Source: Escherichia phage vB_EcoP_SP5M. From it: 64,000 bases of DNA. Positions 4,893 to 36,086 of this stretch are shown one piece after another (the stretch's first letter is position 1; each line of letters begins with the position of its first letter). The stretch lies in the sequence record NC_070869.1; one strand, given 5' to 3'. The notes beneath the pieces were generated by a model that saw only the letters and a list, made by a program, of their open reading frames with translations, was not told the DNA's origin and did not search any database. The position numbers were made by a program, and so were the translations under genes.

Positions 4893-5074
4893 ATAAACAG
4901 TGTAATTGTGGTAAAGGCTATGTATCCCAATGGGATAACAAGTGTGGTAAATGCCGAACCAAGAAAGAACAACGCGATCATGAGTATGCTCTTACTTATT
5001 TAGAAATGACACGTAACTATAACAATATGACCGCACATGATGCTTATATTTATAATAGAGAGGCTTGTAAATGA
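4874..5074 (+). CDS. Small zinc-ribbon-like protein (CNCG...CGKC)
   Basis: ORF track; Cys pairs. Confidence 0.4.
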   Translation: MEYFQMNKQCNCGKGYVSQWDNKCGKCRTKKEQRDHEYALTYLEMTRNYNNMTAHDAYIYNREACK

Positions 5075-10203: not shown

Positions 10204-10237
10204 TTAGTAATTCCATTAACTTTAGGAGAGTAAGTAA

Positions 10238-11290
10238 ATGGAGAGCATTGACTCCTTGACTGTATGTAATACACGCCAAGCCCGTAACTTTATTATCCGT
10301 GCTTTACAAGCAGGTAACGTGCCGTTCCTGACTTCATCACCTGGCATGGGTAAGTCTGCAATTATTCGTTCTGTTGCAGAAGAATTTGGCATGAAGCTGA
10401 TTGACCATCGTCTGTCTACTTCTGCCCCAGAAGACTTGTCTGGTCTACCATTCCGTAATGGTGATCGTGCAGAGTTTATCCCTTTCGCTGACTTATTCCC
10501 TATCGAGGGGGACAAAGTACCGGAAGGTTATAATGGCTGGCTCCTGTTCCTTGATGAGTTCAACTCAGCTAAGAAAGAAGTAGTAGCTGCTGCATACAAA
10601 CTGATTCTCGACCGTATGACTGGACAGAAGAGACTTCACCCCAATGTGATGATTATCTGTGCCGGTAACAAAGCTACTGACCGTGCCATCGTTAACCCTC
10701 TGGGTACTGCAATGCAGTCCCGTGTTGTCCACTTCGAAATGGAACTTAACTTCGATATCTTTGTTGAAGACGTAATGATTCCTCAAGAATGGGATGAGCG
10801 TCTGGTTGCATTCTTACATGCTAACCCTGGCTATCTGCACGACTTCGACCCTGCCCATAAGAACAAGACATTCTGTTGTCCTCGTACTTGGGACTTTGTT
10901 AACAAAGACCTCAAGAACCGACCAGAAGGTGCTCTGCCTGATGAAGATTCTATCTACTATGCAGGCCACGTTACTGCCGGTAAAGCTACAGAATTTGTTC
11001 AGTTCACTCAGGTATACAATCGTATGATTACGATTGAGAAGGTAGTTAAAGACCCTTTGGGCTGTGCACTGCCGGAAGATAATAACCTGTGCTGGGCTAC
11101 CGTTAACCATCTGGCTAACAAGACTACTGAAGATAACTTCTCTGATGTACTTCAGTATATTGAACGCTTTAAAACGTTCACCCATAAGATTCTGTACTTC
11201 CGTACAGTAGGTAAAGCATTACCAGAAATTCAGGCTACCCCTGAATGGCGTAAGGCTGCTGCCAATATCTCTCGTTACATTCACGGATAA
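10238..11290 (+). CDS. MoxR-type AAA+ ATPase
   Basis: Walker A SSPGMGKS, Walker B LLFLDEFN, sensor ICAGN. Confidence 0.8.
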   Translation: MESIDSLTVCNTRQARNFIIRALQAGNVPFLTSSPGMGKSAIIRSVAEEFGMKLIDHRLSTSAPEDLSGLPFRNGDRAEFIPFADLFPIEGDKVPEGYNGWLLFLDEFNSAKKEVVAAAYKLILDRMTGQKRLHPNVMIICAGNKATDRAIVNPLGTAMQSRVVHFEMELNFDIFVEDVMIPQEWDERLVAFLHANPGYLHDFDPAHKNKTFCCPRTWDFVNKDLKNRPEGALPDEDSIYYAGHVTAGKATEFVQFTQVYNRMITIEKVVKDPLGCALPEDNNLCWATVNHLANKTTEDNFSDVLQYIERFKTFTHKILYFRTVGKALPEIQATPEWRKAAANISRYIHG

Positions 11291-11297
11291 TCACAAC

Positions 11298-12473
11298 ATG
11301 AACCAGATACCTCAGCACACACTTAGTGATGAACAACTCATGCGTGAGTATGACCGTATTCAGGCCCAAGCCTTTCTAGGCAAGTCTGCTGCGTTTTTTG
11401 GTTCATTGCTGTGTAGTCTTAAATTCTCATGGAATCGGGAGGATTGTCCCACTGCATGTACTGATGGGATAGAACTCCATTTCAACCCAGACTTCTTTAT
11501 CTGGATGTGCCCTGATGCAAGAGAAACAGTGCTAATGCACGAACTCTGGCATGTGGCATATCTCCATGGCATCCGTTGTGGAAGCCGTGACCCGGAAGTC
11601 TGGAACCAGGCATGTGACCACTTCATTAACCTTCAGTTAGAGGAAGATGGTTACAAATTCACTGGTATCGACAAAGGCATTTGCAAAGACCCTCAATATA
11701 AAGGATGGGTTGAAGAAGACATCTACGATGACCTGATGAAGAACCCTCAGAAAAGGCAGAAGCCGTCAGGGGGTGCTGGAGCAGGTCTTGCTGGCGACAT
11801 GAAAGCTCCCTCTTCGGGGCAGTCCCAGGGTGCTGTTGTCAACAACGTAGTACGTGCAATGCAAAGCCAGAAGATGGCTGGTGGAATGATGCCCGGTAAA
11901 GGTGCTGGTCGTATGGAAGAGGTTATTACCCAATTCCTTAAACCAGTGGTTCCTTGGCAAGAAGTCCTGCTGAACTTCTTTACCGACATTGATGACACAC
12001 ACTATACGTGGGCCAGACCTAACCGTCGTTTCACTGATATCCATCTACCTTCTCTGGAAGATGATGAGGGTCGTTTACGGCACTTAGCTTACTTTGAGGA
12101 TGTATCTGGTTCTATTAGTAGTGCTGACTCTCTGCGTTTTAACTCAGAGGTTGCCTACGTTAAGAGCCAGTTCAATCCTAAGAAGATGACCCTTATTACC
12201 TTCGACGATATTATCCAAGAAGAGATAGACATCACTGAAGAAGATACTTTTGAAGAGATTAAGATTACTGGTCGTGGTGGTACAAACCTTGAACCAGTGC
12301 GTGATTGGATTATTAAGAATAAGCCAACCGCTGCAATCATATTCTCCGATATGTATGTTCGTCCAATGGAAGAATTACCATTTGATATCCCTATCATCTG
12401 GTGTGTTCTGAATAATCCCAATGCTACCGTACCTTTTGGGGAGGTAGTTCATATCCCTAAAGGAATGAAATAA
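11298..12473 (+). CDS. vWA domain protein with N-terminal HExxH metallopeptidase-like region
   Basis: HELWH motif; MIDAS-like DVSGS; partner of the MoxR ATPase. Confidence 0.7.
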   Translation: MNQIPQHTLSDEQLMREYDRIQAQAFLGKSAAFFGSLLCSLKFSWNREDCPTACTDGIELHFNPDFFIWMCPDARETVLMHELWHVAYLHGIRCGSRDPEVWNQACDHFINLQLEEDGYKFTGIDKGICKDPQYKGWVEEDIYDDLMKNPQKRQKPSGGAGAGLAGDMKAPSSGQSQGAVVNNVVRAMQSQKMAGGMMPGKGAGRMEEVITQFLKPVVPWQEVLLNFFTDIDDTHYTWARPNRRFTDIHLPSLEDDEGRLRHLAYFEDVSGSISSADSLRFNSEVAYVKSQFNPKKMTLITFDDIIQEEIDITEEDTFEEIKITGRGGTNLEPVRDWIIKNKPTAAIIFSDMYVRPMEELPFDIPIIWCVLNNPNATVPFGEVVHIPKGMK

Positions 12474-12979
12474 TGGTTGTTAATGGTAATTCTCTATACC
12501 GTTCATCTCAATTACTGGACATCCCAGACCGTAAGGTATCCGAGCACGGTGTAAGCTATGGATTAGGTGAAGCTGGTTACGATATCCGTATCAAACAAGA
12601 TATCACCTTCTATCGCTTATTTGGGTTGATTCCAATGGTGAAAATCATTGATGGTGAGACGGTAACTCGTCGCTTCGGCAAGTTCGCATTGGCTTCGGCA
12701 ATTGAGAAGTTCAACATGTCTAAGTACTGCGTAGCTATCGTTCACGATAAGTCTACCTGGGCAAGGCGTGCATTATCAGTGTTCAATACCGTAATAGAAC
12801 CAGGATGGAAAGGGTATCTTACCCTCGAACTGGTTTATCATGGTCGTAAGAAACTGCATATCCCGGCTGGTGCTGGGATAGCTCAAGTATTATTTCATCT
12901 GGTTCAGGAGCCTGCTAATTACAATGGCAAGTATCAGAACCAGGAAAACAAACCAGTAGCTGCAAGAAGCAGTAAATAA
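12473..12979 (+). CDS. dCTP deaminase / dUTPase-fold enzyme
   Basis: GEAGYDIRI and EPGWKGYLTLEL motifs. Confidence 0.6.
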   Translation: MVVNGNSLYRSSQLLDIPDRKVSEHGVSYGLGEAGYDIRIKQDITFYRLFGLIPMVKIIDGETVTRRFGKFALASAIEKFNMSKYCVAIVHDKSTWARRALSVFNTVIEPGWKGYLTLELVYHGRKKLHIPAGAGIAQVLFHLVQEPANYNGKYQNQENKPVAARSSK

Positions 12980-13198: not shown

Positions 13199-13271
13199 GT
13201 AGCTGCCTAAATAGCCCGGCATAGTTGGGCTATTTGTGAAGAAACTAACTAAACCTCACATAGGAACCATC

Positions 13272-13514
13272 ATGGAATCTTTAGCAGCAATCCTTGTTTT
13301 CTTATTCATATTAGCTGTATACCTTATCCCTACTATCATTGCTTTTTCACGAGGCCATGCCTCTAAGTGGGGCATTGGTGTGCTTAATATCGTATTAGGC
13401 TGGTCTTTAGTCTTCTGGGTAGTAGCACTGATTTGGTCACTGTCCAACAAAGGTCAGAACCAGGTTACGAATGTAACTGTCGTCCAAACCAATGGTGGCA
13501 GTAAAGCAGAGTAA
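13272..13514 (+). CDS. Superinfection-immunity-like small membrane protein
   Basis: PTIIAFSRGHASKWGIGVLNIVLGWSLVFWVVALIWSL resembles Imm_superinfect pattern; start moved to internal Met. Confidence 0.45.
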   Translation: MESLAAILVFLFILAVYLIPTIIAFSRGHASKWGIGVLNIVLGWSLVFWVVALIWSLSNKGQNQVTNVTVVQTNGGSKAE

Positions 13515-14021: not shown

Positions 14022-14464
14022 TGCGTATCCCATTCCTAAGAAAAAGGGAACGAAATCCCGTTCTTTATAATAAAGGCATAGAGGATGAGTACGAACTCAA
14101 CCGTAAAGCCCGTTCCTACGCAACAAAATTATTCATGGGGACCAATACCCCTGATAGATTACTGGACTTTGTTTTCGAACAAGTCTTTATCATATACAGC
14201 TTAGCTATGTCTGCTGGTTCACAAGAAGTAAGTGATAAGGCAAGAGATGCTCTCTGTATGCTCCGTAAAGAGTATGAAGACTTTCTGTATGAAGACTTGT
14301 ACTCCTTTAAAAAAGAAACCGCTGTAGCGTGTTCTGTGGCTCTTACTGAAGGTATAGCAGTATTACAGGAACTACCACGTAGTGAGTTTAAGCTGGTATA
14401 TGTTCAGGCCAAGAAGATTACAGAAAGCCGTAGTGGTATCACCAACTATCTAAGGTCATTCTAA
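14021..14464 (+). CDS. Hypothetical protein (147 aa)
   Basis: ORF track; ATGA overlap with neighbours. Confidence 0.4.
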   Translation: MRIPFLRKRERNPVLYNKGIEDEYELNRKARSYATKLFMGTNTPDRLLDFVFEQVFIIYSLAMSAGSQEVSDKARDALCMLRKEYEDFLYEDLYSFKKETAVACSVALTEGIAVLQELPRSEFKLVYVQAKKITESRSGITNYLRSF

Positions 14465-15408
14465 TGATTAAGGCAACTGTCATTGCAGATTCCGTTCATC
14501 ATGCAACGGGTACTCGTATTACTACCTTTGAATTGGTTTATCCCCGATTCATTCACAGTGAGTTTATGACCCACCGTGTATTCAACCGCAATGCTTCAAG
14601 TAGTCGTGCTATCCCTACTTCTAAGTTAATCGAACAGGTTCGTAATGAACCAGTGATGCCGAGTCACTGGGGTAAGAACCAGAAAGGTATGCAAGCAGAT
14701 GAAGAACTCACTCCTATGGAGATTGAGGATGCTAAGTTTATCTGGGATAACGCTGCATCTGCTGCTGCTGTATATGCTGAACAACTGCGTCGTGGGCAGG
14801 TACATAAGCAAATCGTTAACCGTATTCTGGAACCATTCACACATATCCGTGTAGTAGTAACTTCAACTAGTTGGGCTAATTTCTATGGACTACGTGACCA
14901 CAAAGATGCACAACCAGAGATTCGTGAACTGGCTCAGGCAATGCGTAAGGCACATGAAGAAAGTACTCCAAGAGCATTACCACAAGGGGAATGGCATTTA
15001 CCGTATATTGCTCATATTGACCGTGTCGGGGCTTATAATTACTGCAAACATCAGCGAATTACTCGTGATGAGCCAAGTAGTGAAGAAGTGTATGGCTTAC
15101 TTCTTAAAGTAAGTGCTGCTCGTTGTGCTCGTGCTTCTTATAACAACTTCGAGGGGCGACCTTCTACTATTGAAGAAGACTTAGGATTGTTTGCTAAGTT
15201 AGTTGAGAACCAGCCTATTCATGCATCCCCTACAGAACACCAAGCAACTCCTATGCTGTTCGGTGATAAGTTCATTAACAACCAGAACCCATTAACCTGG
15301 GAACAGGGTGTTACTTCAATGAATCGCGAAGGTAAGCTGTATTCAGGCAACTTACTGGATTTTATCCAATTCCGTAAACTAATCCCCGGAGAAACAATTA
15401 CAGAATGA
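14464..15408 (+). CDS. thyX: Flavin-dependent thymidylate synthase (ThyX-like)
   Basis: HR-x7-S signature-like (THRVFNRNASSSR); adjacent to dCTP deaminase. Confidence 0.5.
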   Translation: MIKATVIADSVHHATGTRITTFELVYPRFIHSEFMTHRVFNRNASSSRAIPTSKLIEQVRNEPVMPSHWGKNQKGMQADEELTPMEIEDAKFIWDNAASAAAVYAEQLRRGQVHKQIVNRILEPFTHIRVVVTSTSWANFYGLRDHKDAQPEIRELAQAMRKAHEESTPRALPQGEWHLPYIAHIDRVGAYNYCKHQRITRDEPSSEEVYGLLLKVSAARCARASYNNFEGRPSTIEEDLGLFAKLVENQPIHASPTEHQATPMLFGDKFINNQNPLTWEQGVTSMNREGKLYSGNLLDFIQFRKLIPGETITE

Positions 15409-36009: not shown

Positions 36010-36086
36010 GTCCGCTTAGCTTAGACTGGGAAAGCAACCGACTAATAATCGGAAGGTCACTGGTTCAAATCCAGTAGTGGACACCA
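36010..36086 (+). tRNA. tRNA with apparent anticodon AAU (loop CTAATAA), CCA encoded
   Basis: Acceptor GTCCGCT/AGTGGAC; D-arm GCTT-AGACTGGGA-AAGC; anticodon stem ACCGA/TCGGA; T-arm ACTGG-TTCAAAT-CCAGT. Confidence 0.55.

Follow-up and report, generated by a model that had tools for sequence, protein, structure and literature searches.

A MoxR-type ATPase and a peptidase-VWA protein of the N4-like phage vB_EcoP_SP5M: a gene pair shared with other phages, conjugative elements and bacteria, and its possible role in counter-defence

Escherichia phage vB_EcoP_SP5M (NC_070869.1), of which a stretch of 64,000 nucleotides (the window) was analysed, is a G7C-like coliphage (Gamaleyavirus, Schitoviridae, N4-like). 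It carries two adjacent genes, the orthologues of N4 gp24 and gp25, encoding an ATPase and a protein in which a zincin-like domain is joined to a VWA domain (the latter protein from now on referred to as the partner), and the next gene encodes a dCTP deaminase. The three open reading frames (ORFs) are present at the coordinates given in an earlier sequence-only reading of the locus, and the features are as follows.

10224–10228, + strand: Shine-Dalgarno sequence AGGAG, 9 nt 5' of the ATPase ATG, from direct reading of the sequence
10238–11290, + strand: ORF1, ATPase of 350 aa, gp24 orthologue
10337–10357, + strand: Walker A (P-loop), residues 34–40 (SPGMGKS)
10541–10558, + strand: Walker B, residues 102–107 (LLFLDE)
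11298–12473, + strand: ORF2, 391 aa, gp25 orthologue with zincin-like domain, low-complexity/helical linker and VWA domain
11325–11747, + strand: zincin-like (putative metallopeptidase) domain, residues ~10–150
11538–11552, + strand: HExxH, residues 81–85
12075–12461, + strand: VWA domain with complete MIDAS motif, residues ~260–388
12099–12113, + strand: DxSxS, residues 268–272, together with T329 and D351
12473–12979, + strand: ORF3, dCTP deaminase of 168 aa, N4 gp26 orthologue

In DNA sequence 54 phage records, NAN33P5, E20, PhAPEC7 and G7C among them, are 92–97% identical to the 2,236-bp region. In the RefSeq annotation of PhAPEC7 the orthologues are described as "similar to" N4 gp24, gp25 and N4 dCTP deaminase, and the annotations of both G7C and PhAPEC7 name N4 gp24 and gp25 outright. 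Related N4-group phages show ~61% protein identity to the window pair with the same gene order (gp24-gp25-gp26 dCTP deaminase), lengths and domains, and there is no difference of substance from the N4 pair. Both genes are among the 14 core genes of N4-like phages, where they are described as middle genes (PMC4193335), and core-gene listings give gp24 as "Unknown" and gp25 as "vWFA domain" (PMC4193335, PMC2784036), which fits the earlier view of a MoxR-VWA remodelling pair with no obvious role. The gene pair and its MoxR-VWA interpretation are already annotated and in the literature, the same combination of MoxR and peptidase-vWA genes having been described in 2021 in group 2.2 jumbo phages by Iyer et al. 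(PMC7824862). The pair is an ordinary annotated sequence feature and no new kind of system, and it belongs to just 14 genes common to all N4-like phages. When searching the literature (DUF2201, N4 gp24/gp25, Schitoviridae VWA, PRTRC together with vWA) no functional study of N4-like gp24/gp25 was found, nor any experimental report of zinc binding or peptide-bond hydrolysis in the gp25 family; the CRISPRi-ART paper holds no genome-wide N4 data for the two genes and the module goes unmentioned in the "Polyvalent proteins" paper. What is added here is the spread of the pair over unrelated phages and bacterial loci, its association with integrative and conjugative elements (ICEs) and the link to a phenotype in the rV5-like phage Bas54.

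ORF1 matched PHROG 1297 ("ATPase") with an E-value of 2.5e-133 and the generic AAA family of Pfam with 2.7e-6. Against Pfam AAA_5 (PF07728) it reached 17.9 bits, which is below the 22-bit cut-off; among its homologues the ATPase of bacterial locus L030 scored 26.5 bits and P0235 has a precomputed PF07728 assignment. When 38 homologues with identities down to 50% were aligned, Walker A G38-K39-S40, Walker B D106-E107, N144 of sensor 1, R162 as the arginine finger and a sensor-2-like R216 in a CPRTW motif were invariant, and all five elements are kept in distant phage and bacterial homologues too. The best PDB sequence match was an AAA module of Midasin (E 5.6e-5), with an aligned stretch that takes in the conserved "RLSTSAPEDLSGLP" segment past strand 2, and in the fold search dynein, Midasin, CbbQ and NorQ were nearest. 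These structural neighbours belong to AAA_5/MoxR, and the helix-2 and pre-sensor-1 beta-hairpin inserts are present. Some GenBank homologues already carry the label "MoxR ATPase". Because of the motifs, the Midasin match and these depositor labels, the term MoxR-type can be accepted in the sense of the dynein/midasin/MoxR (AAA_5) branch, of which ORF1 is a divergent member; by its residues gp24 is a predicted catalytically competent AAA+ ATPase of this branch. Unlike the ATPases of cellular MoxR pairs it has its own all-helical C-terminal domain of ~180 residues (~170–345), and its sequence similarity lies below the Pfam thresholds.

ORF2 matched Pfam DUF2201_N ("putative metallopeptidase", E 5.7e-54, residues 17–253) and DUF2201 ("VWA-like", E 1.7e-33, residues 263–386). 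Profile searches, which had been proposed as a check on the sequence-only reading, accordingly assign the two proteins to an AAA-type ATPase and to DUF2201_N/DUF2201, and the Walker A/B and sensor motifs read in the former and the N-terminal HExxH and C-terminal vWA/MIDAS read in the latter are all borne out. In 38 close homologues H81-E82-x-x-H85 and D107 are invariant and H90 is conserved in at least 90%, H90 and D107 being further candidate metal ligands of the zincin-like domain; the HExxH is invariant in the phage homologues. The MIDAS residues (D268-x-S270-x-S272, T329 and D351) are likewise invariant in the close homologues, and no fewer than 86 of 91 distant ones have them. The predicted structure (pLDDT 78) is confident for both domains and poor for the linker; the VWA domain has a Rossmann-like VWA fold, and the N-terminal domain consists of helices and a three-stranded sheet with the HExxH in helix 72–87. 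Fold searches for the N-terminal domain gave lists dominated by the VWA domain, apart from a marginal Foldseek match to the minigluzincin selecase (E 0.054, probability 0.90–0.94). Matches of this domain to Peptidase_M91 and SprT-like in Pfam were sub-threshold, and PDB sequence and profile searches with gp25, whole and as the N-terminal domain alone, returned nothing relevant. To judge from its residues gp25 is a VWA protein with an intact MIDAS and an N-terminal zincin-type domain whose metal-binding and catalytic residues are intact.

ORF3 was found by Pfam DCD (E 7.9e-16) and PHROG 1663 dCTP deaminase (E 7.6e-59), in keeping with the dCTP deaminase expected next after the VWA gene; its match to TIGR02274 had an E-value of 5.8e-22, yet fell below the cut-off. 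For all three ORFs the E-values of the profile matches exclude chance. ORF1 and ORF2 are separated by 7 nt, and the stop of ORF2 overlaps the start of ORF3 (TAATG), so that, together with the AGGAG site, the three genes look co-translated. The dCTP deaminase is regarded as the translationally coupled context of the ATPase/peptidase-VWA pair, not as a shown component of the system. The pair lies in a block of middle genes, with the genes for the RNA polymerase II subunits and gp17 on one side and nucleotide-metabolism genes and rIIA/B on the other, while the long ORFs at ~21.9–34 kb, where the N4-like order would place helicase, polymerase and primase, are ~10 kb downstream. Its location "inside the replication module" was thus loosely worded: the neighbours are nucleotide-metabolism genes, but this is not the replication module proper.

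A tblastn search of 50,697 phage records revealed the partner in 667 and the ATPase in 808. Outside the N4-like phages both genes occur in Rak2-like jumbo phages, cyanophage S-TIM54, Bacillus phage G and the rV5-like Vequintavirinae. In 121Q the pair is adjacent (ATPase homology to the window E 3e-25), in Serratia BF the partner is adjoined by an ATPase whose homology is presumed from its annotation as "ATPase", and in Vibrio 2.275.O one gene lies between the two. The group 2.2 jumbo phages of Iyer, Anantharaman, Krishnan, Burroughs and Aravind (2021) share the two-gene architecture with homologous proteins, and the 121Q partner consists of DUF2201_N and DUF2201 with all motif residues as in the window; the jumbo-phage proteins differ in being longer (441 and 474 aa), 25–30% identical and encoded beside structural genes. 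S-TIM54 has Hsp20, a MoxR-like ATPase and the partner as adjacent genes, also flanked by a virion structural protein, and the MoxR-like ATPase of S-TIM5 shows 29% identity to that of the window. The two genes are ~5 kb apart in Bacillus phage G, and in rV5-like phages 3.6 kb apart on opposite strands (ATPase E 3e-21). In all these lineages the partner keeps the HExxH, H90, D107 and the full MIDAS. The "anti-sigma factor" gene directly upstream of the rV5-like peptidase-VWA gene was considered as the ATPase or a third component and rejected, as it shows no similarity.

The only homologues with genetic data are those of Bas54, which was verified to be phage MaxBurger (Vequintavirus) with bas54_0063 as its MoxR ATPase; this protein matches the window ATPase with a BLASTP E-value of 3e-21 and the N4-like profile in hhalign with a probability of 99.35% (E 6e-21). 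The partner, bas54_0055, is a putative metallopeptidase with DUF2201_N, DUF2201 and intact motifs. Compared with the window, where the genes are adjacent, the identity is ~23%, the phage belongs to a different family and the genes are separated and on opposite strands. In a transposon-based map of gene essentiality of this phage (HIDEN-SEQ preprint, 2025) both genes are "Non-essential" on K-12, with insertions in 60 of 64 TA sites of bas54_0063 and 81 of 86 of bas54_0055, but when a clinical isolate was compared with K-12, bas54_0063 dropped to zero insertions (log2 fold change -7.23, adjusted p 0) and bas54_0055 was moderately depleted (-2.20, adjusted p 0.009) (10.1101/2025.11.20.689424). 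The file with the depletion values, Data S6 (supplementary file 9), is titled "resampling_K-12_vs_CFE303" while its command and input files say "311" (Bas54_BW_311), which leaves the strain ambiguous from that file alone. Knockouts of bas54_0063 and bas54_0140 were specifically sensitive to a predicted defence system, DS-28, of CFE311 (10.1101/2025.11.20.689424). The origin and mechanism of DS-28 were not traceable, and a search of the window for a homologue of bas54_0140, a protein of 99 aa, gave only chance-level matches in non-genic frames.

When scanning bacteria with one genome per species, 80 loci were returned, of which 77 are of bacterial type, with 25–34% identity to the window partner. 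A gp24-like ATPase is encoded upstream on the same strand in 67 of these 77 (mostly E 1e-40 to 1e-70, weaker for truncated ORFs), and most of the remaining ten have not enough upstream sequence. The genomic pairing typical of MoxR-VWA systems is thus found in the window, where the two genes are adjacent, and is also kept in four other phage lineages and in 67/77 bacterial loci. At 50% identity and E <= 1e-3 the family comprises 21,855 cluster representatives. Two arrangements can be told apart. In type (a) loci the order is ATPase, a further gene X, partner, with X in 53 loci; in type (b) loci, mainly from Desulfobacterota and Thiotrichaceae, the ATPase directly adjoins the partner and a conserved 153-aa protein follows. 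X (~300 aa, found among loci L009–L084, for instance at 5067–5984 in L030 and 5057–6001 in L018) has an N-terminal motif KAMLV.L.IS.WTARK.D and no Pfam match and is usually situated between ATPase and partner. Searches of the window and of the phage loci under study revealed no homologue of X. Many type (a) loci have DD instead of DE in Walker B of the ATPase, and among 76 aligned distant homologues 15 have D in place of E107, these being ICE-type bacterial loci. The neighbours of type (a) pairs include VirB4, VirB11, conjugative-transposon TraM/TraN, ParB, PRTRC ThiF/E2/E and Mom-like proteins, and further RNase H, Sipho_Gp157, DUF4942, an extra DnaN and an excision recombination directionality factor. 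Mobile-element markers were found in 27 loci, 25 of which also have X, and these marker-bearing loci are conjugative or integrative elements. The ATPase/peptidase-VWA pair is in this way conserved in unrelated phage lineages and about 70 bacterial loci.

This distribution bears on the published proposal for the jumbo-phage pair, virion assembly by analogy with Acidianus two-tailed virus (ATV) and its p618/p892 (PMC7824862), according to which gp24/gp25 would be a chaperone and maturation protease for the folding, assembly and proteolytic processing of structural proteins. The surroundings of the pair are in part as such a role would have them, since in 121Q and Serratia BF it follows immediately on virion structural genes and an Hsp70-like gene, in S-TIM54 Hsp20 and a virion structural protein flank it, and the window has gp17, a virion decoration gene, 0.85 kb upstream of it. 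However, homologous modules are common on conjugative elements, which make no virions, and the pair is therefore not tied to virions; it occurs in podo- and myoviruses of unrelated virion architecture, its genes are middle and not late genes in N4-like phages (PMC4193335), and neither homologue is needed by Bas54 to form plaques on K-12. The wider distribution gives no support to the proposal, and we regard virion assembly as an improbable function of the pair. The ATV precedent cited for a chaperone role, p618 (MoxR) and p892 (vWA), is a viral MoxR-vWA pair, but it comes from an archaeal virus, acts in extracellular tail growth and has no peptidase domain.

The neighbours in the ICE loci, among them RNase H, the extra DnaN, ParB and Sipho_Gp157, together with the position of the phage pair near genes of DNA metabolism, raise the alternative of a protease that clears DNA-bound or cross-linked proteins for the replication of phage or conjugative-element DNA, resembling SprT/Wss1/SPRTN with Cdc48/p97. 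Of 21 N-terminal domains three gave sub-threshold SprT-like matches in Pfam, the best with an E-value of 0.11, but this similarity is not significant and no stronger than the Peptidase_M91 match, no DNA-binding domain was detected, and the Bas54 phenotype is specific to the host strain and not a general replication defect. Such a function is very unlikely.

The catalytic Glu of the HExxH is kept strictly in all phage and ICE versions and has been lost in type (b) chromosomal loci only, where the motif reads HVVTH, HIVMH, HTVMH or HLVMH (Glu replaced by V, I, T or L in L043, L046, L058, L063, L068, L070, L073, L074, L079 and L081). In these loci the four candidate metal ligands (H81, H85, H90 and D107) and the MIDAS residues are nearly invariant, which suggests that this chromosomal two-gene subfamily is a metal-binding, non-proteolytic variant. 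The 153-aa protein, which has no Pfam match, follows six Glu-less loci of one nine-member neighbour cluster, whose named Glu-less loci are L043, L046, L063, L068, L073, L079 and L081.

The ligands retained in the Glu-less subfamily, one locus of which adjoins genes for a P-type ATPase and FeoA, would be expected if the His/Asp site handled metal instead of cutting peptides, the pair being a chaperone that inserts a metal cofactor into, or activates, a phage enzyme of the metabolism of nucleotides or DNA. NorQ-NorD, CoxD-CoxE, CobS-CobT and CbbQ-CbbO would be the models for such a role, which could be reconciled with the translational coupling to dCTP deaminase and with the ThyX gene (14464–15408, by Pfam) 2 kb downstream of the pair in the window. 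A thymidylate synthase gene (ThyX or ThyA) is situated ~2–4 kb downstream of the pair in three phage lineages, N4-like, Rak2-like jumbo and S-TIM54; the one in S-TIM54 is annotated as ThyX and those in 121Q, BF and Vibrio 2.275.O just as "thymidylate synthase". In rV5-like Bas54, on the other hand, the thymidylate synthase gene is ~60 kb from the pair, the ICE loci have no such enzymes, the phage and ICE versions hold on to the catalytic Glu, and the phenotype in Bas54 varies with the host strain. To our knowledge neither dCTP deaminase nor ThyX needs assisted metal insertion. A metal-chaperone function thus has a low probability.

Compared with other MoxR-VWA systems the partner in the window stands apart by its zincin-like domain, as a peptidase domain is lacking in those of CbbQ-CbbO, NorQ-NorD and RavA-ViaA, and the clients of these systems are metabolic enzymes (Rubisco, nitric oxide reductase and respiratory complexes). 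Midasin/Rea1, a eukaryotic protein, is one giant polypeptide in which six AAA modules are fused, again without a peptidase. We regard gp24 and gp25 as a putative two-component machine, whose genes show tight linkage in phages, on conjugative elements and in the chromosomes of bacteria. By analogy with CbbQ-CbbO, NorQ-NorD, RavA-ViaA and Midasin, gp24 would form a ring, presumably a hexamer, on which gp25 would dock via its VWA domain, or its MIDAS would grip an acidic residue of the target, and ATP hydrolysis would remodel the captured target protein. The step specific to this family would be that the zincin domain probably cleaves the captured protein, making the pair a substrate-specific, ATP-assisted protease. 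The target may be a host protein, probably a component of a defence against phages or mobile elements, that would be neutralised while infection is in its middle phase.

Tentatively we prefer a role directed at the host, probably in counter-defence, as a possibility that stops somewhat short of an even chance; in N4-like phages it is an extrapolation from the Bas54 homologue and from genomic context. It is favoured because the module is present in virion-less conjugative elements and morphologically unrelated phages and because the homologues are not essential on K-12 but become conditionally necessary in a clinical isolate. A part in virion assembly or in DNA synthesis itself is less likely. 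Several points weigh against the counter-defence reading. The chief objection is that gp24 and gp25 belong to the universal core of N4-like phages while anti-defence genes are normally variable, and this core status suggests a more central role in the N4-like lineage. The anti-defence pattern, dispensable on a permissive host and needed with a defence system, is seen for the Bas54 homologues only; the experimental data come from a homologue with only ~23% identity in a different phage family, and the second validated DS-28 gene is bas54_0140 and not the peptidase-VWA gene, whose depletion is much weaker. The N-terminal fold assignment is weak, as the Foldseek E-value above indicates, and peptidase activity, ring formation and gp24-gp25 binding are predicted by analogy only. 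No NCBIfam model matched gp24 or gp25, and PADLOC gave nothing meaningful for either (DolB, E 0.006, 13.8 bits). The PADLOC result also rules out the pair as a component of a known defence system.

Should the counter-defence reading be extended to the whole family, gp24/gp25 and their homologues would be a widespread class of ATP-dependent, substrate-specific anti-defence proteases of several phage families and of conjugative elements. Caught by a MoxR ring and a MIDAS adaptor, an immune protein of the host would be cut by the zincin domain. The family has ~22,000 representatives at 50% identity, and in N4-like phages the module would have ended up as a fixed core pair. This generalisation is doubtful. 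If true, an energy-dependent proteolytic mechanism would join the counter-defence repertoire of phages, with a bearing on host-range prediction for N4-like therapeutic phages. The Bas54 phenotype and the ICE association in any case turn a long-standing "unknown" core function into a concrete hypothesis that can be tested in N4-like phages.

In relatives of the phage the gp24-gp25 region is a hot spot for insertion of homing endonucleases, and the HNH insertions of G7C, U1G and NAN33P5 are missing from the window. In G7C an HNH gene, gp24.1, separates gp24 from gp25, the gene pair of NAN33P5 contains ~1.7 kb of extra DNA, and in U1G and Pollock the ATPase gene is split around an HNH gene, annotated in U1G as "phage intron"; the Rfam group I intron match at the split ATPase gene is sub-threshold (23.7 bits against a cut-off of 50). 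The label "HNH endonuclease" that gp25 homologues carry in PHROG 1314 and many RefSeq records is a misannotation, as Pfam finds only DUF2201_N and DUF2201 in them, and it has probably spread from true HNH homing-endonuclease ORFs inserted beside or inside gp24-gp25 in some phages. In U1G gp25 is annotated as two ORFs owing to a single-base deletion in a GGGGG run (position 2913 of L090), which corresponds to the G5 run at 11769 of the window, in the linker between zincin and VWA domains; the split could be either a sequencing error or a natural separation of the two domains.

Elsewhere in the window two adjoining tRNA genes lie at 35928–36086 on the + strand, one for tRNA-Ile (AAT) and the other with an anticodon left unassigned by ARAGORN. 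Closer to the pair, the ORF at 13236–13514 (92 aa) has as its positional equivalent PhAPEC7 gp28, which sits between the dCTP deaminase and ThyX genes and is annotated as "immunity to superinfection".

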